The position numbers and the translations under genes are program-made. Under the pieces are notes generated by a model. The model saw nothing but the letters and a program-made list of their open reading frames with translations, ran no database searches and was not told where the DNA came from. From assembly GCF_003018235.1 (NCBI RefSeq), contig NZ_CP027437.1: 64,000 bases of DNA. One strand, written 5' to 3'. Below are positions 34,994-61,039 of this stretch, in pieces (within the stretch, counting starts at the first letter, position 1; every line of letters starts with the position of its first letter). This DNA comes from Escherichia coli (GTDB lineage Bacteria; Pseudomonadota; Gammaproteobacteria; Enterobacterales; Enterobacteriaceae).

Positions 34994-35026
34994 AAAAAAA
35001 ACCCGCTGATTAAGCGGGTTTTGAAT
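34994..35026. terminator. Bidirectional intrinsic terminator between convergent crcB and cspE
   Basis: AAAAAAAACCCGCTGATTAAGCGGGTTTTG hairpin flanked by A- and T-runs. Confidence 0.75.
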
Positions 35027-35041
35027 TCTTGCTGACGTATC

Positions 35042-35251
35042 TTACAGAGCGATTACGTTTGCAGCAGAAGGGCCTTTGGCACCGTTAGTGATTTCGAACT
35101 CTACGCGCTGACCTTCAGCAAGAGTTTTAAAACCATTAGTCTGGATTGCAGAGAAGTGTACGAACACGTCTTTGCTGCCGTCTTCCGGAGTAATGAAACC
35201 GAATCCTTTGGACTCATTAAACCACTTAACGTTACCTTTAATCTTAGACAT
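35042..35251 (-). CDS. cspE: Cold-shock-domain protein CspE
   Basis: 69-aa protein [20 protein letters not shown] (RNP1 motif); track ORF extends 28 codons upstream. Confidence 0.95.
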
Positions 35252-35425
35252 CAAAATTACCTTTACATGAAAAATAGACACAAATGCTGTGTCGGTTACC
35301 AGTACACCAATTGTGGTACGCTTTGTCCAGTGCAACTTTACTAAAAAGTGATAAAAGTCGCGTTATTTTTGATGTTAATTATTTTACTCATTGATTTTAA
35401 AGAGTTTACTAAAATTTCATTTGTC

Positions 35426-35986
35426 TCAAAACTGAAAGCGCATCCAGGCAAAGTACACATTGCCATTGTTATAGGTACCCGGAATGTAGGTCATCTGAAA
35501 AGTCACTGGACCATAACCCACAGAGGCCAATGGCAGTAGAACCGGGAGAGGGATGTAATTCCAGTTATCGCGTGCCGTTACGCCAGCGGTGAATCCCAGT
35601 CCTAAATGAAAATTTTCATCTGCCAGCGGTCGCCAGGTACTTTCCCATCCGTATCCGGCAATCGGTTCCCATTTGTTCCACGAGTCCTTAAATGCCATGG
35701 CATACAGGCCATGCCAGTTTCCTTTTTCATCCCATCGCGACTGACCAAAACCGCCCCCCCACGGTCGCTCGTTATAGCGATCGGTTTTTTCTTTGTCGTA
35801 AGCGAAACGTGCATGCCAGGTGATGGCAGGAATATATAAATCATAATGTTCAGGCTGTTGCCAGGTTTGTGCAATATTTTCTCTAAACGTTGTCATCCAC
35901 TCATCTGCGTTAGCAAAAACTTTACCAACGCTGATTAACTGAATAAAAACAAAGGAAAAGATAGCGACATATTTACTCACGTTCAT
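35426..35986 (-). CDS. pagP: Lipid A palmitoyltransferase PagP (outer-membrane beta-barrel)
   Basis: 186-aa protein [25 protein letters not shown]... with C-terminal FAWMRFQF. Confidence 0.93.
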
Positions 35987-36576
35987 TTGTGACCATAAAA
36001 CATTTATCAAAAATCTACTACTAGCATAGCAAAGCTACAATTAACATAACCTTAATAGCCCCAACATAAAGAACAATCTGAATAGCTGCTCTATTTATTT
36101 CCGCTTGTTTAAGTTAAATATTTCCGCGCATCGATTAAAGATGATGCGTCGTTTTCTGCGATGGGAATAGTCAAAAAAGAAAAACCAAGTCTTTTTTGAT
36201 GACAAAATGCAACCAAGAAAAAATTACTTTATTTTTTAATGAGATACAAAAAAAATTCCTTAACGAAAAATATATTATATATCGTCAACCCATGATCATG
36301 GTAGATTATTTTTTGAGCGCACACCCGCGGCTAACACCATTGCAATTAACAAATTTGCATCAATCCACCATCAATTTACACACATTATTATGTGATAATT
36401 GCCAACCGCTAAATATGCGTTTTGTTATCTATGTATAAAAACAGCAACTTCAATGTCTTAATGGCAGTTTTTCTTGATTTTAATCAGCATTCACCGCCAA
36501 TTTATTGGGCATATTTTTTCCTTAAGCTTTAGGAATTTTTTATTATTTACTTTGGGGCCTGGAGACAGGAAAAATT

Positions 36577-51459: not shown

Positions 51460-51629
51460 GTTTATCTCCTGGGCTTTAAACATCATCATGCAAGCGGCCT
51501 CTGCGGCTACCTGGATGCAGCTTGCATCATGGTGCGGGGAAGAAAATCGGGTGCCGCAGCACCCGAAGAATTAGGTGAATTTCCGAAGTATTTCGCGCCG
51601 GAGTTGGTAGCGCGAAAGACGAAGGAAAT

Positions 51630-52193
51630 TTAGATTTTACCAACCAGGTCCAGAGACGGAGCCAGAGTTGCTTCACCTTCTTTCCATTTAGCCGGGCAAA
51701 CTTCACCTGGGTGAGAAGCTACGTACTGTGCTGCTTTGATTTTACGCAGCAGGTCAGACGCGTCACGGCCAATGCCTTCAGCGGTAACTTCGATTGCCTG
51801 GATGATACCCTGCGGGTCAACAACGAAGGTCGCACGGTCAGCCAGACCTTCATCTTCACGCATGTTGTCGAAGTTACGGGTCAGGGCGCCAGTCGGGTCG
51901 CCGATCATCGCATATTTGATTTTAGCGATGGTTTCAGAGCTGCTGTGCCATGCTTTGTGGGTGAAGTGAGTATCGGTAGATACTGCGTATACGTCTACGC
52001 CCAGTTTCTGCAGTTCTTCGTAGTGGTCAGCAACGTCACCCAGTTCGGTCGGGCATACGAAAGTAAAGTCAGCCGGGTAGAAGAAGAAGACGCTCCAGCG
52101 GCCTTCGGTATCTTTTTCGGTGATTTCGATGAATTCGCCGTTTTTGAATGCCTGGTTTTTAAAAGGTTTAATTTTGGTGTTAATCAAGGACAT
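51630..52193 (-). CDS. ahpC: Alkyl hydroperoxide reductase subunit C (2-Cys peroxiredoxin)
   Basis: 187-aa ORF with peroxidatic Cys in FTFVCPTEL and resolving Cys near C-terminus. Confidence 0.96.
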
Positions 52194-52494
52194 CTATACT
52201 TCCTCCGTGTTTTCGATGAGATGTAAGGTAACCAATTTTTGCCGATTCGGCTAATGCGTTTCCATTATCAAATCGATAAGTTTTACCTTACAACCTTCGT
52301 AAGACAACTTTGTGAACTTTGCACCGCCAGCGGCGATAAAAAGTAAAATGGCCCCCTTTCCAGGTGACCGTGTAATCTGAACTACCCTTTGGTATCTTCA
52401 GCGCCTGCCTGCAGGCTGAGGTGTTGCCCTTACAAATGCAACAACGACATGGATTACAACACCCTCATAAACAAAGGGCAATCACCTGATCTAA

Positions 52495-52530
52495 GCTCTT
52501 ACCTATGACAGTGATAGGTTATGCCTTTTA
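52495..52530. promoter_or_regulatory. Candidate OxyR-type operator in the ahpC / dsbG divergent region
   Basis: CTAT-N7-ATAG core (ACCTATGACAGTGATAGGTTATG) matches the centre of the OxyR tetrad consensus; exact site not verified. Confidence 0.35.
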
Positions 52531-52564
52531 CCCGACTTTTGCACTGACTGAAAAGGACAAATTA

Positions 52565-53311
52565 ATGTTAAAAAAGATACTTTTACTGGCTCTGCTTCCT
52601 GCAATCGCCTTCGCAGAGGAACTTCCTGATCCAGTAAAAGCGATTGAAAAACAGGGCATTACAATCATCAAAACGTTCGATGCTCCCGGAGGAATGAAAG
52701 GTTATCTCGGCAAGTATCAGGATATGGGCGTCACCATCTACCTGACTCCAGATGGTAAGCACGCTATCTCCGGTTACATGTACAACGAGAAAGGTGAAAA
52801 CCTGAGTAACACACTTATCGAAAAAGAAATTTACGCACCAGCCGGGCGCGAAATGTGGCAACGGATGGAACAATCCCACTGGCTCCTCGACGGTAAAAAA
52901 GACGCGCCGGTCATTGTCTACGTCTTCGCCGATCCGTTCTGCCCATATTGTAAACAGTTCTGGCAGCAGGCTCGCCCGTGGGTTGATTCTGGCAAAGTGC
53001 AATTAAGAACATTGTTGGTTGGCGTTATCAAGCCAGAAAGCCCGGCGACAGCAGCGGCAATTCTTGCCTCCAAAGATCCCGCAAAAACCTGGCAAGAATA
53101 TGAAGCCTCTGGTGGCAAGCTTAAGCTAAACGTGCCTGCAAACGTAAGTACAGAGCAAATGAAAGTGTTAAGCGACAACGAGAAACTGATGGACGATCTG
53201 GGGGCAAATGTCACACCAGCTATCTACTACATGAGTAAGGAAAATACGCTGCAACAGGCCGTGGGGTTGCCCGATCAGAAAACGCTTAATATCATTATGG
53301 GGAATAAATAA
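52565..53311 (+). CDS. dsbG: Periplasmic thiol:disulfide oxidoreductase DsbG
   Basis: 248-aa protein from [17 protein letters not shown] (signal peptide) with CPYC active site. Confidence 0.92.
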
Positions 53312-53518
53312 AAGATAATTCATGGATGGTTGAAATATATCCCTGTTTTTCAACCATCCTAAAAAAGCATGAATTGCTCGCTCTGCCCTAAGTGGCTGTG
53401 CTATTTTAGAAAAACTTAATTCTGAGTTAAGCAAAAAAATATAATACAAATAAATACAACAGCAACATTATTGAACAAATGAATGATTTATAGAAGAGAT
53501 AATATAACGGAGTATGTT

Positions 53519-54421
53519 ATGGCGAATCTTTATGACCTAAAAAAATTTGATCTGAATTTACTGGTCATATTTGAGTGCATTTATCAACACCTCAGCATTA
53601 GCAAAGCAGCAGAATCATTATATATAACGCCCTCTGCTGTTAGTCAGTCGTTACAACGTTTACGCGCGCAATTTAATGACCCGTTATTCATCCGCTCAGG
53701 GAAAGGTATCGCGCCGACTACGACAGGGTTAAACCTGCATCACCATCTTGAGAAGAATCTCCGAGGCCTTGAACAAACGATCAATATTGTTAATAAGTCT
53801 GAGCTAAAGAAAAATTTTATTATCTACGGTCCTCAGCTTATTTCTTGTACTAATAACAACATGCTAATCTGCTGTCTTAGACAAGATACTTCAATCGATA
53901 TAGAATGCCATGACATACTGCTTTCAGCTGAAAATGCCGAAGAACTGTTGGTTCAACGCAAAACTGACCTGGCAATTACACTACAACCAGTAATTAGCCG
54001 CTCTGTCATCTGCATGCCGTTACATACTATTCGCAATTCTCTTATATGTAGCAATAAACATCCTCGTATTACCGATACCAGTAACTATGAACAAATTATC
54101 GCCGAAGAATTCACCTTGTTGATATCTAAATCAGCAGGGATTGACGAAATTCAAATGGACATAGATGAACGTTTTATGAACCGTAAAGTTTCATTTCGCA
54201 GTTCTTCTTTGTTGACGATAATTAATAGTATTTCTGTTACTGACTTATTGGGCATTGTGCCCACCGAACTGTACGATTTACATCGTGATTTTTTGAAGTT
54301 ACAAGAGATAAAACTGGAACGACCACTTCCTGCGGTTAAACTTTATATTTCCTATAACAAGGCTTCGTTGAACAACCTTGTCTTCTCACGATTCATAGAT
54401 CGTTTAAATGATAGCTTCTGA
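53519..54421 (+). CDS. ybdO: LysR-family transcriptional regulator (AT-rich gene)
   Basis: 300-aa protein MANLYDLKKFDLNLLVIFECIY... with LysR HTH (TPSAVSQSLQRLR). Confidence 0.88.
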   Translation: MANLYDLKKFDLNLLVIFECIYQHLSISKAAESLYITPSAVSQSLQRLRAQFNDPLFIRSGKGIAPTTTGLNLHHHLEKNLRGLEQTINIVNKSELKKNFIIYGPQLISCTNNNMLICCLRQDTSIDIECHDILLSAENAEELLVQRKTDLAITLQPVISRSVICMPLHTIRNSLICSNKHPRITDTSNYEQIIAEEFTLLISKSAGIDEIQMDIDERFMNRKVSFRSSSLLTIINSISVTDLLGIVPTELYDLHRDFLKLQEIKLERPLPAVKLYISYNKASLNNLVFSRFIDRLNDSF

Positions 54422-54460
54422 TTTATTACCACGGATAAATGTTATATTACGCATCAATTG

Positions 54461-54475
54461 ATTCATTGTGTGAAT
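54461..54475. promoter_or_regulatory. Candidate LysR-type T-N11-A box upstream of ybdN
   Basis: ATTCATTGTGTGAAT dyad (TTCA-N5-TGAA) about 95 bp upstream of ybdN start, adjacent to LysR gene ybdO. Confidence 0.3.
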
Positions 54476-54567
54476 ATAAAATAATGTGCTCTATCTTGCT
54501 TCGTTTACCCTATAATTAACGGATTCATCTCACGAGTCACCCCGTAACGTTCAGAGAGCGTTTTCAG

Positions 54568-55788
54568 ATGTCTATTTATAAAATCCCGCTTCCACTGAAT
54601 ATTCTGGAAGCTGCAAAAGAACGTATTACCTGGACACTTAACACCCTACCCCGCGTCTGCGTTTCTTTTTCGGGTGGTAAAGATTCCGGATTAATGCTGC
54701 ATCTGACCGCCGAACTTGCCCGACAAATGGGCAAAAAAATTTGTGTTTTATTTATCGACTGGGAAGCTCAGTTCTCTTGCACCATTAACTATGTTCAGTC
54801 TCTGCGCGAGTTGTACACCGATGTCATCGAAGAGTTTTACTGGATTGCGCTCCCGCTTACAACGCAAAATTCCCTATCACAATACCAACCCGAATGGCAG
54901 TGCTGGGAACCTGATGTCGAATGGGTACGTCAGCCCCCGCAAGATGCGATAACCGATCCTGACTTTTTCTCCTTTTACCAGCCTGGCATGACCTTCGAAC
55001 AATTTGTGCGTGAGTTTGCCGAATGGTTTTCGCAAAAACGTCCGGCGGCGATGATGATCGGCATCCGTGCGGATGAGTCCTACAACCGTTTTGTCGCCAT
55101 CGCCAGTTTAAATAAACAACGTTTTGCCGATGATAAGCCCTGGACTACTGCCGCACCAGGCGGTCATAGCTGGTACATTTACCCCATCTACGACTGGAAA
55201 GTCGCTGATATCTGGACCTGGTATGCTAGCCATCAACGCCTCTGTAACCCACTGTATAATATAATGTATCAGGCAGGCGTTCCTCTACGTCATATGCGAA
55301 TTTGCGAACCTTTTGGTCCGGAACAACGGCAAGGATTATGGCTCTATCACGTTATCGAACCGGATCGCTGGGCTGCTATGTGCGCACGAGTCAGCGGGGT
55401 AAAAAGTGGCGGCATTTACGCCGGACATGACAACCATTTTTATGGTCATCGGAAAATCCTCAAGCCCGAACATTTAGACTGGCAGGAGTATGCATTATTG
55501 CTACTCAACAGCATGCCGGAGAAAACAGCTGAGCATTATCGCAATAAAATCGCCATTTATTTGCACTGGTATCAGAAAAAAGGCATCGAGGTTCCACAAA
55601 CCCAGCAAGGGGACATTGGCGCGAAAGATATCCCCTCCTGGCGGCGAATATGCAAAGTTTTACTCAATAACGATTACTGGTGTCGGGCATTATCATTTAG
55701 CCCGACCAAAGCGAAGAACTATCAGCGTTATAACGAACGAATAAAAGGAAAACGTCAGGAATGGGGGATACTATGCAACAACGATTAA
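54568..55788 (+). CDS. ybdN: PAPS-reductase-like PP-loop ATP pyrophosphatase family protein (IbrA-like)
   Basis: 406-aa ORF with PP-loop motif SFSGGKDSG near N-terminus. Confidence 0.85.
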   Translation: MSIYKIPLPLNILEAAKERITWTLNTLPRVCVSFSGGKDSGLMLHLTAELARQMGKKICVLFIDWEAQFSCTINYVQSLRELYTDVIEEFYWIALPLTTQNSLSQYQPEWQCWEPDVEWVRQPPQDAITDPDFFSFYQPGMTFEQFVREFAEWFSQKRPAAMMIGIRADESYNRFVAIASLNKQRFADDKPWTTAAPGGHSWYIYPIYDWKVADIWTWYASHQRLCNPLYNIMYQAGVPLRHMRICEPFGPEQRQGLWLYHVIEPDRWAAMCARVSGVKSGGIYAGHDNHFYGHRKILKPEHLDWQEYALLLLNSMPEKTAEHYRNKIAIYLHWYQKKGIEVPQTQQGDIGAKDIPSWRRICKVLLNNDYWCRALSFSPTKAKNYQRYNERIKGKRQEWGILCNND

Positions 55789-56390
55789 CGCAGGATTTAA
55801 CCCAATTTCTCGCCAGCTTGCCGGAAGACGATCGCATCAAAGCGATTAATGAAATCCGCATGGCGATCCATCAGGTTAGCCCCTTTCGAGAAGAGCCAGT
55901 GGATTGCGTTCTGTGGGTTAAAAACAGCCAACTTATGCCTAATGATTACAACCCAAACAACGTGGCACCACCCGAAAAAAAACTGCTGAAAAAATCCATT
56001 GAAATAGATGGTTTTACCCAACCCATTGTGGTCACGCATACGGATAAAAATGCCCTGGAAATCGTGGATGGTTTTCACCGCCATGAAATTGGTAAAGGCT
56101 CATCATCGTTAAAATTACGCTTAAAAGGTTATTTGCCGGTGACCTGTCTGGAAGGTACGCGTAATCAACGCATCGCCGCGACTATTCGTCATAACCGCGC
56201 TCGTGGACGTCACCAAATCACTGCCATGTCAGAAATCGTCCGTGAACTCAGCCAGTTGGGATGGGACGATAATAAAATTGGCAAAGAGCTGGGAATGGAC
56301 AGCGACGAAGTGCTACGCCTGAAGCAAATTAACGGCCTGCAAGAGTTGTTTGCCGACCGTCAATATTCCCGCGCCTGGACGGTTAAATAG
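55761..56390 (+). CDS. ybdM: ParB/sulfiredoxin-like domain protein (IbrB-like)
   Basis: 209-aa ORF with DGFHRH motif; 28-bp overlap with ybdN. Confidence 0.85.
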   Translation: MGDTMQQRLTQDLTQFLASLPEDDRIKAINEIRMAIHQVSPFREEPVDCVLWVKNSQLMPNDYNPNNVAPPEKKLLKKSIEIDGFTQPIVVTHTDKNALEIVDGFHRHEIGKGSSSLKLRLKGYLPVTCLEGTRNQRIAATIRHNRARGRHQITAMSEIVRELSQLGWDDNKIGKELGMDSDEVLRLKQINGLQELFADRQYSRAWTVK

Positions 56391-57551
56391 CTAAAGCTGG
56401 CGCAGGCGTTCAGCTGCTGCCAGCAACGTCGATTCCTTCTTGGCAAAACAGAGACGAATCAGTTTATGTGGGAAGGGATCGGCGCAAAACACCGATAGCG
56501 GAATCGCCGCTACGCCGTGCTCCTGCGTCAGCCACTGGCAAAACTCAACGTCATCCAGGGTAGATACGGCGCTGTAATCCACCAGCAAAAAGTATGTACC
56601 TTCGCACGGTAAAATCTCCAGCCGGCTTTCATTTAAGGCATTCACCAGAATATCGCGCTTCTGGCGATAAAAGTCCGGTAACGCAAGATAATGCTCAGGT
56701 TCTGCACGTAGCATATCGGCAAGCGCCAGCTGTGCCGGGGTATTCACCGAAAAGGTCAGATACTGATGTACCTTGCGAATTTCGGCACTGATGGGCGCTG
56801 GCGCAACGCAATAACCCACTTTCCAGCCGGTCATATGATAGGTCTTGCCAAACGATGACACCGCCACCGCCCGCTCACGCAGCTGCGGATGCGCCTGCAC
56901 GCTGGCATGGCCCTGTTGTGAAAAGTTGATGTGCTCGTAAACTTCATCGCTAATGACAAAAATCTCGTGCCCGGCAATTGCCTGCCACAAAGCGGCGAAA
57001 TCAGCCTGCTGCCAGACAGTTGCACTGGGGTTATGCGGGGTGTTGAGGATCACCAGTCGGGTGCGCTCGCTTAACAATGCGGCAAATTCCTGCCAGTCCA
57101 CGCGAAAATGCGGTGGTTGCAGTGCAATACGTTTCACTATTCCCCCCGAAAGCGCGATGGCGGGCGCGTAACTGTCATAGCTGGGATCAAAGCAGATCAC
57201 TTCATCACCATTGCGCACCAATGCGGTAATCGCTGCATATAACGCTTCCGTCGCCCCTGCCGTTACGGTGATATCACTATCGGCATCCGGTTGATAGCCA
57301 TACAGACGTTCCGTTTTCTGAGCAATCGCCTCGCGCAAGGCCTGCACGCCAGTCATAGGCGCGTATTGGTTTGCCCCCTGGTCAACATGGTACGCCAGCC
57401 GCTCCTGCAAATAGCGCGGACCATCAAAATCAGGAAAGCCTTGCGAAAGGTTAATCGCCTGGTGTTGCTGCGCCAGCGCGCTCATCTGGGTGAAAATAGT
57501 GGTGCCAAGTTGTGGAAGTTTGCTTTGTGGAATCAGAGGGTTATTTGTCAT
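56391..57551 (-). CDS. ybdL: PLP-dependent aminotransferase (methionine aminotransferase family)
   Basis: 386-aa ORF with fold-type I aminotransferase features and PLP-lysine context SSFGKTYHMTGWKVG. Confidence 0.9.
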   Translation of the reverse strand: MTNNPLIPQSKLPQLGTTIFTQMSALAQQHQAINLSQGFPDFDGPRYLQERLAYHVDQGANQYAPMTGVQALREAIAQKTERLYGYQPDADSDITVTAGATEALYAAITALVRNGDEVICFDPSYDSYAPAIALSGGIVKRIALQPPHFRVDWQEFAALLSERTRLVILNTPHNPSATVWQQADFAALWQAIAGHEIFVISDEVYEHINFSQQGHASVQAHPQLRERAVAVSSFGKTYHMTGWKVGYCVAPAPISAEIRKVHQYLTFSVNTPAQLALADMLRAEPEHYLALPDFYRQKRDILVNALNESRLEILPCEGTYFLLVDYSAVSTLDDVEFCQWLTQEHGVAAIPLSVFCADPFPHKLIRLCFAKKESTLLAAAERLRQL

Positions 57552-57658
57552 TTTTTATTGTGCCTGACGAAGTTGTGTTGAAGGCACTATAACACGATGC
57601 TAGTATTTGGCGATCAAGACGTTTAGATGTCTAAATAAAACAATAAGGACAACACAAC

Positions 57659-58747
57659 ATGCCTCACAATCCTATCCGCGTGGTCGTCGGCCCGGCTAAC
57701 TACTTTTCACATCCCGGCAGTCTCAATCACCTGCACGATTTTTTCACTGATGAACAACTTTCTCGCGCGGTGTGGATCTACGGCGAACGCGCCATTGCTG
57801 CGGCGCAAACAAAACTTCCGCCAGCGTTTGAACTGCCAGGGGCAAAGCATATTTTGTTTCGCGGCCATTGCAGCGAAAGCGATGTACAACAACTGGCGGC
57901 TGAGTCCGGTGACGATCGCAGCGTGGTGATTGGCGTCGGCGGCGGCGCACTGCTCGACACCGCGAAAGCCCTCGCCCGCCGTCTCGGTCTGCCGTTTGTT
58001 GCCGTTCCGACGATCGCCGCCACCTGCGCCGCCTGGACACCGCTCTCCGTCTGGTATAACGATGCCGGACAGGCGCTGCATTATGAGATTTTCGACGACG
58101 CCAATTTTATGGTGCTGGTGGAGCCAGAGATTATCCTCAATGCGCCGCAAGAATATCTGCTGGCGGGGATCGGTGACACGCTGGCGAAATGGTATGAAGC
58201 GGTGGTGCTGGCCCCGCAACCAGAAACGTTGCCGCTAACCGTGCGACTGGGGATCAATAATGCGCAGGCCATTCGCGACGTCTTGTTAAACAGTAGCGAA
58301 CAGGCGCTTGCCGATCAGCAAAATCACCAGTTAACGCAATCATTTTGCGATGTGGTGGATGCGATTATCGCCGGAGGTGGAATGGTCGGTGGTCTGGGCG
58401 ATCGTTTTACGCGTGTGGCGGCGGCCCATGCCGTGCATAACGGTCTGACCGTGCTGCCGCAAACCGAGAAGTTTCTTCACGGCACCAAAGTCGCCTACGG
58501 AATTCTGGTGCAAAGCGCCTTGCTGGGTCAGGATGATGTGCTGGCGCAATTAACAGAGGCGTATCAGCGTTTTCATCTGCCGACTACGCTGGCGGAGCTG
58601 GAAGTGGATATCAATAATCAGGCGGAGATCGACAAAGTGATTGCCCACACCTTGCGCCCGGTGGAATCCATTCATTACCTGCCGGTCACGCTGACACCGG
58701 ATACGTTGCGTGCAGCGTTCGAAAAAGTGGAATCGTTTAAAGCCTGA
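57659..58747 (+). CDS. ybdH: Iron-containing alcohol/glycerol dehydrogenase-family oxidoreductase
   Basis: 362-aa ORF with GVGGGALLDTAKA NAD-binding motif. Confidence 0.88.
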   Translation: MPHNPIRVVVGPANYFSHPGSLNHLHDFFTDEQLSRAVWIYGERAIAAAQTKLPPAFELPGAKHILFRGHCSESDVQQLAAESGDDRSVVIGVGGGALLDTAKALARRLGLPFVAVPTIAATCAAWTPLSVWYNDAGQALHYEIFDDANFMVLVEPEIILNAPQEYLLAGIGDTLAKWYEAVVLAPQPETLPLTVRLGINNAQAIRDVLLNSSEQALADQQNHQLTQSFCDVVDAIIAGGGMVGGLGDRFTRVAAAHAVHNGLTVLPQTEKFLHGTKVAYGILVQSALLGQDDVLAQLTEAYQRFHLPTTLAELEVDINNQAEIDKVIAHTLRPVESIHYLPVTLTPDTLRAAFEKVESFKA

Positions 58748-58756
58748 CGTACATAT

Positions 58757-58954
58757 TTAGCAGCAGCGCGCGCCGCCTTTTCCACCGTAGCGCGCGTCCT
58801 GCCGCTCACGGAAAAACTCCTCGTAGGTCATCGGCGTTTGATCGGGATGGTTAACCCGCATATGTTCGACATAGTTGTCGTAATCAGGCATACCAATCAT
58901 CAGTTTCGCCGCCTGACCTAAATATTTTCCGGCTTTTGCCAGTGAATCAAACAT
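58757..58954 (-). CDS. ybdD: Small DUF466-family protein downstream of cstA
   Basis: 65-aa [61 protein letters not shown]... Confidence 0.88.
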
Positions 58955-59066
58955 CTAAACCTCCGGTAATACAAATGCCCTCCTGAATTAAGAGGGCTTA
59001 ATTGCTATCAACACGCTCGGGCTGAGAGTAAGGGGAACGCTCAGCACATCCCCCCTCACTCTGACT

Positions 59067-61039
59067 TTAGTGCGCGCCTTTCGCCTGCGCCACGATCTCT
59101 TCGACATTTTCCGGCATCGGCTCATATGGCGTTTCTTTCGCCGTTGGCTTCGGCTCTTTCAATGCCGCCAGTGCCGTCTTAATCGAGAACAGCGCCAGAA
59201 CCACCACGACCACCATAAAGAAGATGGTTAACCCGGCATCAAGACGGTTGTTGAATACCAGTTGCGCCAGCTGTGACTCAGTATACTGCGACGGAATATT
59301 GCCGCTGTCGATCATTGCCTGGAACTTATTAGCAATCGCCTGGAAGCCGACTTTCGCATCCGGGCTAAACGCTTTCTGCCAGCCTGCGGTCAGGGTACAA
59401 ATCAGCAGCCAGGCCGTTGGTACCAGCGCCACCCAGGCGTAACGTTGACGTTTCATTTTGAACAGCACCACAGCACAGAGCATCAGCGCCATCCCTGCCA
59501 GCATCTGGTTGGCAATACCAAACAGCGGCCACAAGGTGTTAATACCGCCCAGCGGATCGACCACACCCTGATGGAGGAAGTAGCCCCACGCCAGTACGCA
59601 CAGCGCCGTTGCCAGCAGGTTAGCAGGCAGTGAATCGGTCCGTTTCAGGCCCGGAGACACCACGCCCAGCAGATCCTGCAACATAAAGCGCGCAGCACGC
59701 GTACCTGCATCCACCGCCGTCAGAATAAACAGTGCTTCAAACAAAATGGCGAAGTGATACCAGAACGCCACATCCATCATGCCGCCCAGCGCGCCGTGCA
59801 GAATGTAGGCCATCCCCACCGCCAGCGTCGGCGCACCGCCCGCACGGGAAATGATCGACTGTTCACCCACTTCGCTGGCAATCTGGTTGAGCGTATCTGG
59901 TGTAATGCTAAATCCCCAGCTACTCACCACCTGCGCGGCAGAAGCAACCACATCCGCCGTACCTGCCGGAGCCAGCACCGCCATCGGGCTGTTCATAGCG
60001 AAGTACACACCCGGATCGATGATACAGGCGGAAACCAGCGCCATAATCGCTACGAAGGATTCCATTAACATCCCGCCGTAGCCGATAAAACACGCCTGCC
60101 CTTCGTTCGCCAGCATCTTCGGCGTGGTACCGGAAGAGATCAGCGCATGGAAGCCAGACACCGCGCCACAAGCGATGGTGATAAACAGGAACGGGAACAG
60201 GTTACCGGTCCATACCGGGCCTGTGCCATCGACAAATTTAGTTAGCGCAGGCATGGTCAGCGTCGGGCGCATAATCAAAATGCCTACCGCCAGACCGACG
60301 ATAGTCCCGATTTTCAGGAAGGTTGAGAGGTAGTCACGCGGAGCCAGCAGCAGCCACACCGGCAGCACCGCCGCCACAAAACCGTAACCCACCAGCATCC
60401 AGGTCAGCTGCACGCCGGTAAAGTCAAAGTACGGTGCCCAGGTCGGGCTTTCTGCCACCCAGCCGCCAGAGATAATGGCGAAAATCAGGAACACCAGACC
60501 AATCACCGACACTTCGCCAATACGCCCCGGACGCAGATAACGCAGGTAGATCCCCATAAACAGCGCCAGCGGAATGGTGAACGCAACGGTATACGTTCCC
60601 CACGGGCTATGGGTCAGGGCTTTCACCACGATCATCGCCAGCACGGCAAGGATAATGACCATGATCATAAAGCAGGCCACCAGCGCAATCACCCCGGCAG
60701 GTAACCCATTTGCGCCGCCAGCACCGGCCCCACCAGCGGGCCTGCTCCGGCAATGGCCGCAAAATGGTGACCGAACAGCACTTTTTTGTCCGTCGGCACA
60801 TAGTCCAGCCCGTCGTTATGGCGCACCGCTGGCGTCATACGCGTCGGGTCAACCGCCAGCACATTTTTGGCGATATACAGGCCATAAAAACGGTAAGCGA
60901 TCAGATAGATACAGACCGACGCCACCACAATCCACAGCGCGTTGATCTGTTCCCCACGATTTAAAGCAATGTATCCCAGAGCAAATGCTCCCATTACAGA
61001 GAGCACTGTCCAGACGAGGTATTTCCCTGATTTGTTCAT
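59067..61039 (-). pseudogene. cstA: cstA (CstA-family peptide/pyruvate transporter) split into two reading frames
   Basis: N-terminal ORF 60689..61039 (116 aa, ends ...AAQMGYLPG then TGA) and C-terminal ORF 59067..60692 (541 aa, begins GVIALVACFMIMVIIL) are in different frames and overlap by 4 bp; combined length is roughly 44 residues short of the ~700-aa full-length protein I recall. Confidence 0.6.

Follow-up and report, generated by a model that had tools for sequence, protein, structure and literature searches.

PP-loop enzymes of the PAPS-reductase, FMN-adenylyltransferase and CysD kind convert ATP to AMP and pyrophosphate and adenylate their substrate. Other PP-loop enzymes, such as TilS and TtuA, act on tRNA. 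In IbrA/IbrB pairs, a gene encoding PAPS_reduct and DUF3440 domains lies directly upstream of, and overlaps, a gene for a ParB-fold protein with a helix-turn-helix (HTH) motif, and IbrAB of E. coli ECOR-9 reportedly serve as co-activators of the prophage eib genes, which encode immunoglobulin-binding proteins. The DndC/DndB pair of the DNA phosphorothioation system also joins a PAPS-reductase-fold PP-loop enzyme to a ParB-superfamily protein, and the working model for DndC is ATP pyrophosphatase chemistry on DNA (PMC10853773). In DpdA/DpdB, a ParB-fold NTPase works with a DNA-modifying module that inserts 7-deazaguanine into DNA (PMC12839542). Fusions of ParB domains to a methyltransferase or an acetyltransferase bind either ATP or GTP in vitro, and a published survey found that the NTP bound by a ParB fold is not predictable from sequence (bioRxiv 10.1101/2025.10.10.680097).

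Positions 53519-56390 of the 64-kb stretch of E. coli DNA analysed here (the window) contain three genes on the plus strand, as an earlier note on this DNA had observed. They are citR, also named ybdO (53519-54421, 300 aa), which encodes a LysR-type repressor of ybdNM; ybdN (54568-55788, 406 aa), a predicted PP-loop ATP-pyrophosphatase-like enzyme; and ybdM (55761-56390, 209 aa), predicted to carry a ParB-fold nucleotide-binding domain and a HTH. This is the already-known citR(ybdO)-ybdN-ybdM locus of E. coli. It is annotated in 5,422 of 5,426 complete E. coli genomes (99.9%), and the gene order dsbG-citR-ybdN-ybdM-ybdL, common to the Enterobacteriaceae, is held in more than 60 species of the family. 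The locus is therefore not a new element, in line with its earlier description as conserved and not newly inserted. Published experiments establish that the repressor gene and the two-gene operon ybdN-ybdM are kept almost silent by CitR and H-NS in laboratory conditions. H-NS binds and represses ybdO (PMC4720273, PMC9141747). CitR represses ybdNM; upon deletion of citR, no gene is induced more than ybdN (+5.5 log2), and ybdM rises by 2.5 log2 (PMC9068703). The literature searched contains no defined biochemical function for ybdN-ybdM, as the earlier note had stated, and no substrate, product or enzymatic activity for their relatives.

The best explanation that we can offer, to which we give a little less than an even chance, is that a YbdN-YbdM complex uses ATP to adenylate and modify DNA, and that it descends from the mobile IbrAB module. 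YbdN would be an ATP-binding PP-loop enzyme of the PAPS-reductase/FMN-adenylyltransferase/CysD fold, but not a PAPS reductase. YbdM would be a nucleotide-binding protein with a ParB fold and a HTH domain that binds DNA and works stoichiometrically with YbdN. Together, the two proteins would act on DNA, the likeliest reaction being covalent modification of a base or backbone activated by adenylation.

Residues 1-235 of YbdN form the PAPS-reductase/FMN-adenylyltransferase/CysD fold, and residues 236-406 a helical DUF3440 domain, in which no recognisable DNA-binding fold was found. Pfam matches are to PAPS_reduct (E 1.7e-6 and 3.9e-5), DUF3440 (E 5e-23 and 2e-6) and the PP-loop family ATP_bind_3 (E 8e-4). 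The architecture is that of the PAPS reductase-like fold (PF01507, adenine nucleotide alpha-hydrolase superfamily), Rossmann-like alpha/beta with an N-terminal nucleotide-binding loop. The PP-loop motif SGGKDS, which had been noticed before, is present at residues S35-S40 (54670..54687, +, read from the translation). Across 34 homologues that are 28-84% identical, G37, K38 and S40 are invariant, S35, G36 and D39 are kept in at least 90%, and about 40 further residues are strictly conserved. The closest folds are CysH, APS reductase and CysD, and the motifs around the nucleotide site align with those of CysH, CysD and eukaryotic FMN adenylyltransferase. Unlike this group, YbdN has no catalytic cysteine, carries the extra 170-residue DUF3440 domain and lies in an unrelated genomic context. 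A Cap9 complex is also among its structural matches.

YbdN could in principle belong to sulfur metabolism, as a PAPS/APS reductase, a PAPS sulfotransferase or a CysD-like sulfate-activating enzyme. Its Pfam family, RefSeq product name and closest folds would agree with this, and in virome studies the DUF3440 clade is classed among the cysH auxiliary metabolic genes. The whole CysB regulon is also up in the citR mutant, where ybdN is de-repressed (cysH +3.2; cysDNC, cysJI and cysAUW +2 to +2.8 log2; PMC9068703), although this induction is a correlation only. We consider such a role very improbable. The 34 family members share no invariant cysteine: the best columns hold one in 27/34 and 25/34 sequences, with alanine in E. 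coli YbdN at the first. The C-terminal ECGLH motif with its catalytic cysteine and the CC...CxxC Fe-S motif of APS reductases are both absent from the family. Scores fall far below the cut-offs of the curated models for the PAPS reductase CysH, EC 1.8.4.8 (TIGR02057, 34 bits against 254; NF002537, 33 against 154; TIGR00434, 23.6 against 165) and of the CysD models. The loop is of the canonical ATP type, and E. coli has its own cysH and cysDN at other sites. Nor does sulfur assimilation account for the obligate ParB partner or for the SNF2 helicases and recombination genes around the family. 'PAPS reductase' is probably a misnomer: the family lacks an invariant cysteine, retains the ATP-type PP-loop and has a ParB-like gene alongside in at least 86% of 85 loci.

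We also considered YbdN as a DndC and rejected the assignment. It scores 21.7 bits against the DndC model TIGR03183 (cut-off 290), lacks the cysteine dyad and the Fe-S cysteines, and carries a C-terminal DUF3440 domain that DndC does not have. DndA, DndD and DndE are missing from the neighbourhood, which consists of dsbG, citR and ybdL. The likeness to PAPS reductase and DndC put forward in the earlier note thus stands for the fold and fails for the chemistry.

YbdM gives a weak match to Pfam ParB_N (E 2.8e-4) and a strong one to the PHROGs family phrog_2159, 'ParB-like partition protein' (E 3.9e-69), which bears out its earlier description as ParB-like; its RefSeq name is 'IbrB-like domain-containing protein'. 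The AlphaFold model (pLDDT 81.5) consists of an N-terminal helical hairpin followed by a ParB-fold domain and a HTH, after which the protein ends with a disordered tail (residues 197-209). The best structural matches are the N domain and HTH of Noc, ParB and KorB, with TM scores of about 0.5 (0.50-0.54 over 148-172 aligned columns to Noc, 7nfu, and KorB, 8qa9, in Foldseek). The DGFHR motif, also correctly noted before, spans D103-R107 (56067..56081, +) and aligns with the GERR box of ParB and Noc; D103, G104, H106 and R107 are invariant in 23 family members. A second signature of the family, TIRHNRARGRH (T141-H151; 56181..56213, +), appears to correspond to the ParB ENxxR box. In the same 23 sequences T141, N145, A147, R148, G149 and H151 are invariant, and I142, R143, H144 and R146 are kept in at least 90%. 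G104 and R107 would thus sit at GERR and N145 and R148 at ENxxR, so that the invariant D-G-x-H-R and N145/R148 probably fall at the nucleotide-binding positions of ParB.

YbdM differs in several respects from ParB, Noc and KorB, which are CTP-dependent DNA clamps. It has DGFHR(HE) instead of GERRxRA and the additional N-terminal hairpin, and it lacks the C-terminal dimerisation domain. Its scores are below the ParB-family cut-offs (TIGR00180, 15.8 bits against 58; TIGR04285, 20.4 against 315). The locus contains neither ParA nor parS, and the partner of YbdM is a predicted enzyme. A ParB domain like that of YbdM is found fused to phage DNA methyltransferases (phrog_498, E 1e-10; PADLOC MTase_II). 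With DpdA/DpdB and the ParB-methyltransferase fusions, the family shares the association of a ParB fold with a catalytic module, DNA-modifying in those systems, and SNF2 helicases in the neighbourhood. The catalytic partner is different, YbdN being a PP-loop enzyme and not a DpdA-type transglycosylase or SAM methyltransferase, and no preQ0 pathway genes lie nearby.

The 28-bp overlap between ybdN and ybdM (55761..55788, +) described in the earlier note is confirmed, and an overlap is kept in the orthologues. It measures 28 bp in Citrobacter and Enterobacter, 40 bp in S. arizonae and 16 bp in the plasmid and island paralogues. A YbdM-like gene lies on the same strand no more than four genes away at 73 or more of 85 family loci (86%), directly adjacent in 72. 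Among these adjacent pairs, 70/72 are spaced by 20 bp or less and 46/72 overlap. Tight translational coupling of ybdN and ybdM, as the earlier note suggested, is plausible, and this arrangement characterises the family as a whole. At 23/85 loci the pair is joined by phrog_62, a compact SNF2 helicase, in the order SNF2-IbrA-IbrB; this helicase often accompanies the pair in phages, in whose genomes the pair is also common. Other neighbours include RecE-like exonucleases, GNAT enzymes, a glutamine amidotransferase (GATase) and a SAM methyltransferase. If the pair modifies DNA, the GATase, GNAT acetyltransferases and methyltransferase could supply the incoming group in these relatives, and the SNF2 translocase could provide access to DNA. 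The enterobacterial pair has no SNF2, GNAT or GATase partner, so its chemistry may differ from that of the phage versions or be incomplete.

Since PP-loop enzymes act on tRNA, small molecules and proteins as well, a DNA target cannot be deduced from the fold by itself. YbdN might adenylate and modify a tRNA or rRNA base, like TilS and TtuA, or attach a group to a protein, like the QueC-like Cap9, with YbdM as the subunit that confers specificity or senses a nucleotide. The ParB/Srx fold does occur in enzymes with protein or small-molecule substrates (sulfiredoxin, SbnI and free serine kinase). We nevertheless regard an RNA or protein target as quite unlikely: YbdM has a HTH of the ParB type, SNF2 helicases and nucleases of recombination recur in the neighbourhood, DNA methyltransferases are found fused to this kind of ParB domain, and profile searches detected no tRNA-binding domain.

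Modification of DNA could serve Dnd-type defence against phages or plasmids, in which the pair would mark the cell's own DNA and unmarked incoming DNA would be restricted. Like DndC and DndB, the two proteins combine a PP-loop enzyme with a ParB fold, and DGFHR resembles the DGQHR motif of DndB. YbdM protein is up 29-fold in the presence of a foreign plasmid (PMC8764527). PADLOC-DB v2 gave only weak partial matches of 16-22 bits to DndC (21.7 bits, E 2e-5), to BrxP of BREX type 4 (E 1.7e-4) and to MTase_II, none at the level of a family or system, and none for CitR. No DndB model matched YbdM, either in NCBIfam up to E 10 or in PADLOC. No nuclease or restriction partner is encoded nearby, and DndA, DndD and DndE are absent. 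The genes form a syntenic core set and not a variable island, they are silent under normal growth, and pairs of this type are common in phage genomes themselves. A defence function is thus highly unlikely in our estimation.

In base composition, the citR region stands apart from the operon. The GC content is 0.295 in the dsbG-citR intergenic region, 0.380 in citR and 0.356 in the citR-ybdN intergenic region, compared with 0.513 for the whole window. The stretch 53312-54611 (GC 0.363) is among the lowest 0.08% of 1.3-kb windows in the 64 kb (z = -3.6). The proposal of an AT-rich cassette is therefore correct, and non-random, for citR and its flanks (0.30-0.38), but does not extend to ybdN (0.472) and ybdM (0.471). 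An AT-rich block at 53276..54774, covering the dsbG-citR intergenic region, citR, the citR-ybdN intergenic region and roughly the first 200 nt of ybdN, is also hyper-divergent. Its sliding identity to a K-12-like allele is 72-86%, against 93-100% in the flanks. Two haplogroups of citR about 21% apart are present in E. coli, and dS is saturated in citR compared with 0.1-0.3 in the flanking genes.

While citR evolves fast, ybdN and ybdM change about as slowly as the housekeeping neighbour ybdL. Between genera, dN is 0.095-0.17 for ybdN and 0.09-0.11 for ybdL; within E. coli, dN/dS is 0.02-0.06 for ybdN and 0.04-0.11 for ybdM. The substitution rates point to vertical inheritance of ybdNM and do not support a foreign origin. 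Of the earlier suggestion that the region is foreign or silenced, silencing is borne out by the published work on H-NS and CitR, and foreignness is not for ybdNM.

CitR itself is a clear member of its family, scoring 451.1 bits against the NCBIfam equivalog NF047710 (cut-off 400), with Pfam HTH_1 (E 1.7e-18) and LysR_substrate (E 4.9e-10) domains. A longer open reading frame begins at 53483, but the start MANLYDL at 53519 is kept across genera. A candidate citR promoter with the extended -10 element TG-C-TATTTT lies at 53399..53407 (+), and its core GTGCTAYTTTAG is shared by Escherichia, Citrobacter and Salmonella. The start sites of K-12 and SE15 citR map 107 and 106 nt upstream of the start codon (PMC4720273), which by homology would place transcription initiation in the window near 53412-53415. 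The inverted repeat CTTAA-N7-TTAAG at 53415..53431 (+), at about +1 to +18, is a candidate operator for CitR autoregulation. Its half-sites are invariant in eight sequences from three genera, it occurs once in the window, and a CitR ChIP-exo peak lies upstream of citR (PMC9068703). The citR-ybdN intergenic region (54422..54567), expected to hold the ybdN promoter, contains a possible -10 element TATAAT (54511-54516), a candidate palindrome ATCAATTGAT (54453-54462) and the candidate repeat TTATATT-N24-AATATAA (54442-54479). The sequence TATAATTAA in this region is kept within Escherichia, but not between genera. These assignments are tentative, because promoter-like matches in the region are no commoner than in shuffled sequence.

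The relationship to IbrA/IbrB proposed in the earlier note is well founded. The ybdNM proteins are 55-58% identical to the RefSeq 'IbrB-like' island and plasmid pairs (57-58% for the A and 55-57% for the B proteins), and ybdNM has the gene arrangement of the IbrA/IbrB type. It differs in being core chromosomal and syntenic with a dedicated LysR repressor and is not known to have an eib-like target, whereas the ibrAB-type pairs are accessory and lack citR. Such pairs, in up to four copies, are present on islands and plasmids in 2,131 of 5,426 E. coli genomes (39%). Their neighbours there are a PerC-family regulator and cah, a gene for a TonB-dependent receptor, and the iro and iuc loci for siderophores. 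The chromosomal ybdNM could be an old, vertically inherited copy of the IbrAB module that is mobile on phages, plasmids and pathogenicity islands.

The main rival to DNA modification is a regulatory, anti-silencing role, which we judge unlikely overall. YbdM/IbrB would be a nucleotide-switched DNA binder, similar to KorB or VirB, that alters the expression of H-NS-silenced, horizontally acquired genes without covalent modification, with YbdN/IbrA driving loading or remodelling at the expense of ATP. Counting against DNA modification, the one experimental phenotype known for close paralogues, the reported activation of eib, is transcriptional and needs no modified DNA. The best structural matches of YbdM are DNA-binding units including the HTH, and the accessory pairs reside on islands and virulence plasmids beside a regulator, cah and siderophore genes. 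Deletion of citR shifts the flagellar, cys and cit regulons without detected CitR binding there, and the involvement of ybdNM in this is putative (PMC9068703). Against a purely regulatory complex, the strict conservation of the PP-loop and some 40 other YbdN residues points to an enzyme. ParB clamps also need a GERR arginine patch and a C-terminal dimerisation domain, and YbdM has neither. In phages, the pair is found not beside regulators but within replication and recombination modules that include SNF2 helicases.

DNA modification by YbdN-YbdM may be part of a wider pattern. It is possible, though we think it doubtful, that YbdN/YbdM and IbrA/IbrB represent a new, widespread class of two-component, ATP-dependent DNA-modifying systems that does not involve sulfur transfer. 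In such systems, a ParB-fold protein acting as a nucleotide switch would load the adenylating PP-loop subunit, and in phages the module would work with a SNF2 translocase and interchangeable donors (GATase, GNAT or methyltransferase). The Enterobacteriaceae would then hold a silenced core copy together with island copies whose DNA mark alters the expression of horizontally acquired genes. If this is true, many phage genes annotated as 'cysH + DUF3440' would be DNA-modification genes and not sulfur auxiliary metabolic genes.

The ORF table places three genes on the plus strand, citR (ybdO; 53519-54421, 300 aa), ybdN (54568-55788, 406 aa) and ybdM (55761-56390, 209 aa), flanked by ahpC (-) and dsbG (+) on the left and by ybdL (-) on the right. 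A longer citR reading frame from 53483 exists; the MANLYDL start is kept across genera. CitR passes its curated NCBIfam equivalog with 451 bits, against a cut-off of 400. The segment was found by megablast in 5,422 of 5,426 complete E. coli genomes, where the genes are annotated as citR, as a 'phosphoadenosine phosphosulfate reductase' (ybdN) and as an 'IbrB-like domain-containing protein' (ybdM), and the order dsbG-(citR)-ybdN-ybdM-ybdL is maintained in more than 60 Enterobacteriaceae species. The ybdO-ybdN-ybdM cassette described in the earlier note is correct in every particular, its 28-bp ybdN/ybdM overlap included, and the genome counts and synteny confirm a known conserved locus with no new insertion. 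In about 17 of the syntenic loci, including those of Citrobacter amalonaticus, Phytobacter, Kosakonia and Pluralibacter, citR was not detected.

Loss of the locus can be observed in E. coli ET120 (L002, 8221-9806). An ISKpn26 element cuts citR after 108 nt, the entire ybdN-to-entF interval is missing and entF is the next intact gene. Contigs L093 and L154, from metagenome-assembled genomes labelled 'uncultured Bacteroides sp.' and 'Lachnospiraceae', carry citR-ybdN, with a K-12-type citR allele and a ybdN that is 98-99% identical to that of the window; almost certainly both are E. coli sequence placed in the wrong bin. At the right end of the locus, the convergent ybdM and ybdL, listed as an 'excludon' in K-12 (PMC12288877), have abutting stop codons (TAG/CTA, 56388-56393), with no spacer and no terminator-like hairpin at the junction. 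On the left, a perfect 12-bp inverted repeat, GGATGGTTGAAA-N12-TTTCAACCATCC (53324-53359), lies 13 nt past the dsbG stop codon, is kept within Escherichia and is probably the dsbG terminator hairpin. An Rfam search over 52000-58000 found nothing within the locus, only a sub-threshold hairpin and, upstream in the ahpC-dsbG intergenic region, the STnc70 sRNA (52338-52431, minus strand; 44.1 bits, gathering score 40). Two segments, in the ahpF-ahpC (~51550-51625) and ybdD-cstA (58823-59194) intergenic regions, are shared with strain CD306; the K-12-like genome L001 lacks them or cannot be aligned there.

AT-richness in the cassette is limited to citR and the intergenic regions on either side of it (GC 0.30-0.38), as the earlier note had seen for ybdO and its flanks; ybdN and ybdM have a GC of 0.47, vs 0.513 for the whole window. 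No other 1.3-kb stretch of the window is as AT-rich as 53312-54611 (z = -3.6). The sole other strongly AT-rich tract, 35000-36500 (GC 0.375-0.40), contains cspE-like and pagP-like ORFs, followed by a long intergenic region before a dcuC-like ORF; these names derive from translations, not searches.

Divergence is similarly localized. Against the K-12-like genome, identity drops to 72-86% over ~53276-54774, compared with 93-100% in the flanks. The two citR alleles share 79% DNA and 88% protein identity, and synonymous change between them has reached saturation (pS 0.65 over codons 1-110, 0.76-0.79 in the rest; dN 0.067). Among genomes the alleles are sharply bimodal: 1,771 genomes have at least 95% identity to the allele of the window, 3,545, including K-12 and O157:H7, form another haplogroup at 78.5-79.4%, and only 28 are intermediate. 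Between the haplogroups the HTH domain of CitR is 100% identical and the effector domain 83%. Higashi et al. 2016 (PMC4720273) had already reported the high substitution rate of ybdO (top 50 genes) and its binding by H-NS; the split into two discrete haplogroups and the synonymous saturation are added here.

Between genera, dN reaches 0.35-0.45 for citR, 0.15-0.26 for ybdM and 0.095-0.17 for ybdN, with 0.09-0.11 for the housekeeping neighbour ybdL. Fast evolution within the locus is thus confined to the regulator. Since synteny is kept and dN is housekeeping-like, the ybdNM pair is ancient, inherited vertically and under purifying selection, and a recent foreign insertion is rejected for it. 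The earlier suggestion of a 'foreign or silenced' origin therefore stands for silencing, in view of repression by CitR and H-NS, and is not supported for a foreign origin of ybdNM.

CitR binds upstream of its own gene, and its deletion induces ybdN more than any other gene (+5.5 log2) and ybdM by +2.5 log2 (PMC9068703). H-NS represses ybdO via upstream and downstream elements, and transcription starts 107 nt before the start codon (PMC4720273). In E. coli K1, acid pH relieves H-NS repression, and YbdO also activates capsule genes there (PMC9141747). YbdM protein increases 29-fold in MG1655 carrying plasmid pUUH239.2 with blaCTX-M-15 (PMC8764527). An extended -10 element, TGCTATTTT (53399-53407), and the inverted repeat CTTAA-N7-TTAAG shortly after it (53415-53431) are kept from Escherichia to Salmonella, at positions that agree with the published ybdO start site; the repeat constitutes a candidate operator. 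The citR-ybdN intergenic region is weakly conserved between genera. Matches in a promoter and terminator scan were no commoner than in shuffled sequence, so it is conservation and the published start that support the promoter assignments.

In Pfam, YbdN has two PAPS_reduct segments and a DUF3440 match (E 5e-23), as the earlier note had anticipated for such a check, and also hits the PP-loop family. Among 1.84 billion cluster representatives searched, 1,682 clusters are related at E <=1e-3 and 217 at E <=1e-30. The PP-loop, SGGKDS at residues 35-40 of YbdN, is conserved across the 34 aligned family members (28-84% identical), and R19, G37, K38, S40, D64, E66, T72, W113, W119, S171, P206, D214, Y230 and R274 are invariant. 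The 34 sequences share no invariant cysteine, and the best-conserved cysteine column holds an alanine in E. coli YbdN. Scores with the curated CysH, CysD and DndC models are far below the cut-offs. From these features we conclude that YbdN is a predicted ATP-using adenylating enzyme with a PAPS-reductase fold. Of the earlier description as a PAPS-reductase- or DndC-like enzyme, the motif and the fold remain; identity with either enzyme is not supported, given the lack of an invariant cysteine and the low CysH and DndC scores.

The DUF3440 C-terminal helices match nothing. The extensions of longer family members proved to be frameshift or assembly artefacts or low-complexity tails, and were rejected as informative domain fusions. 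PDB searches with single sequences returned no meaningful relative; family profiles returned generic CysD/FADS/CysH and ParB/Noc relationships only, apart from spurious hits on designed helical-repeat proteins.

The only fresh support for a role in sulfur metabolism is the citR mutant, in which the entire CysB sulfate-assimilation regulon is induced along with ybdN (up 1.8-3.2 log2; PMC9068703 Table 1), and we consider it most improbable. The product name 'phosphoadenosine phosphosulfate reductase' is probably wrong, whatever the mechanism. Virome work has treated the DUF3440 clade as cysH, among the sulfur auxiliary metabolic genes. This phage clade is the IbrA family; it has no conserved cysteines and is paired with ParB and SNF2 genes, and the sulfur-metabolism label is probably wrong here as well.

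The ParB-like domain expected in YbdM is detected weakly by Pfam (ParB_N) and strongly in PHROGs (phrog_2159, E 4e-69). YbdM also matches the N-terminal part of the phage DNA-methyltransferase family phrog_498 (E 1e-10). Its invariant residues include N61, N64-N66, E72, D103, G104, H106, R107, T141, N145, A147-G149 and H151, and the family signatures are NDYNPN, VDGFHR and TIRHNRARGxH. The predicted structure (pLDDT 81.5) opens with a helical hairpin at the N-terminus and also contains a ParB-type nucleotide-binding domain and an HTH. It best matches the N-domain-plus-HTH units of Noc, ParB and KorB (TM ~0.5), with weaker matches to sulfiredoxin, SbnI and a serine kinase. Unlike true ParB clamps, YbdM contains neither the GERR patch nor the C-terminal dimerisation domain.

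We examined the surroundings of 85 YbdN-family loci, 80 of them from IMG/VR. In 73, a YbdM-like gene is no more than four genes away and on the same strand, an undercount, as the ParB gene of phage locus L012 fell outside the cluster. The partner is nearly always directly adjacent (39 downstream, 33 upstream); 70 of these 72 pairs are spaced by 20 bp or less and 46 overlap. A compact SNF2 helicase (phrog_62) is added in 23 of the 85 loci, usually in the order SNF2-IbrA-IbrB and with a short ParB partner (median 175 aa). Streptococcus thermophilus phage CHPC1148 and Flavobacterium phages carry this trio, and so does the Listeria chromosome, where a SAM methyltransferase follows. RecE-like exonucleases are further recurrent neighbours; GNAT acetyltransferases recur too (Ralstonia, L010, cluster 17), and lie between IbrA and IbrB in Ralstonia and a metagenome contig. 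In L012, a class II glutamine amidotransferase (GATase_6) adjoins the terminase. A core with interchangeable accessory enzymes can be seen in L012 (1651-6006), L010 (2735-6598), L008 (7977-10256) and L007 (6803-10571).

Our preferred reading, which falls somewhat short of probable, is that YbdNM acts on a nucleic acid, most likely DNA, and would modify it covalently through an adenylated intermediate. It is based on the strict conservation of the enzyme subunit, on the obligate, tight coupling of YbdN to a ParB-fold/HTH partner, on the recurrence of DNA translocases, recombination nucleases and group-donating enzymes nearby, and on the fusion of the same ParB domain to DNA methyltransferases elsewhere. 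An RNA or protein target is distinctly unlikely and ranks below both DNA modification and a regulatory role. Dnd-like defence is very unlikely: PADLOC gave weak partial matches of the locus proteins to DndC, BrxP and a type II methyltransferase and recognised no defence system at the locus, and DndB models do not match YbdM. A toxin-antitoxin reading was prompted by one Listeria survey that has DUF3440 among its terms; the strong catalytic-motif conservation and the helicase context speak against it.

The main rival to DNA modification is a regulatory anti-silencing complex that leaves no mark on DNA. IbrAB is reportedly able to switch on prophage (eib) genes, an old observation. This IbrAB-eib phenotype, taken from citations, the KorB/Noc-like predicted structure of YbdM and the island contexts of ibrAB-like pairs all speak for regulation, which we consider unlikely. 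A second, mobile enterobacterial pair, 55-58% identical to YbdN/YbdM, is present in 2,131 of 5,426 complete E. coli genomes (39%), in up to four copies; 854 plasmid records also contain it, next to the iro and iuc siderophore loci. In O157:H7 it adjoins a PerC-family regulator and cah. Examples (L160, 8936-10791; L161, 8999-10851; L004, 8992-10856; L005, 8989-10850) have virulence or iron-uptake loci as neighbours, these being the PerC-family regulator with cah, a TonB-dependent receptor, iroBCDN and iucABCD-iutA. Virulence plasmids of Klebsiella, Salmonella and E. coli carry homologues, as do hundreds of phages.

The literature or the annotation already covers the locus and its regulator, as well as H-NS silencing, the rapid evolution of ybdO and the relationship to IbrAB. 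The locus is therefore a known feature with a well-defined, testable question on function, and no discovery in itself. The literature searched contained no mechanistic study of the YbdN/YbdM (IbrA/IbrB, DUF3440) family; a 2022 study calls YbdM 'completely uncharacterized' (PMC8764527), and a 2025 ParB-fold survey does not mention its class (bioRxiv 10.1101/2025.10.10.680097). The description of an under-characterised system lacking a defined biochemical function was thus accurate.

ybdN and ybdM are conserved across a whole bacterial family and evolve as slowly as a housekeeping neighbour, without an assigned function. Because deletion of citR de-represses ybdNM, the pair is directly testable in K-12. 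If YbdNM modifies DNA, it would represent a new enzyme class for bacterial and phage epigenetics, and would provide a mechanism by which IbrAB switches on prophage genes.
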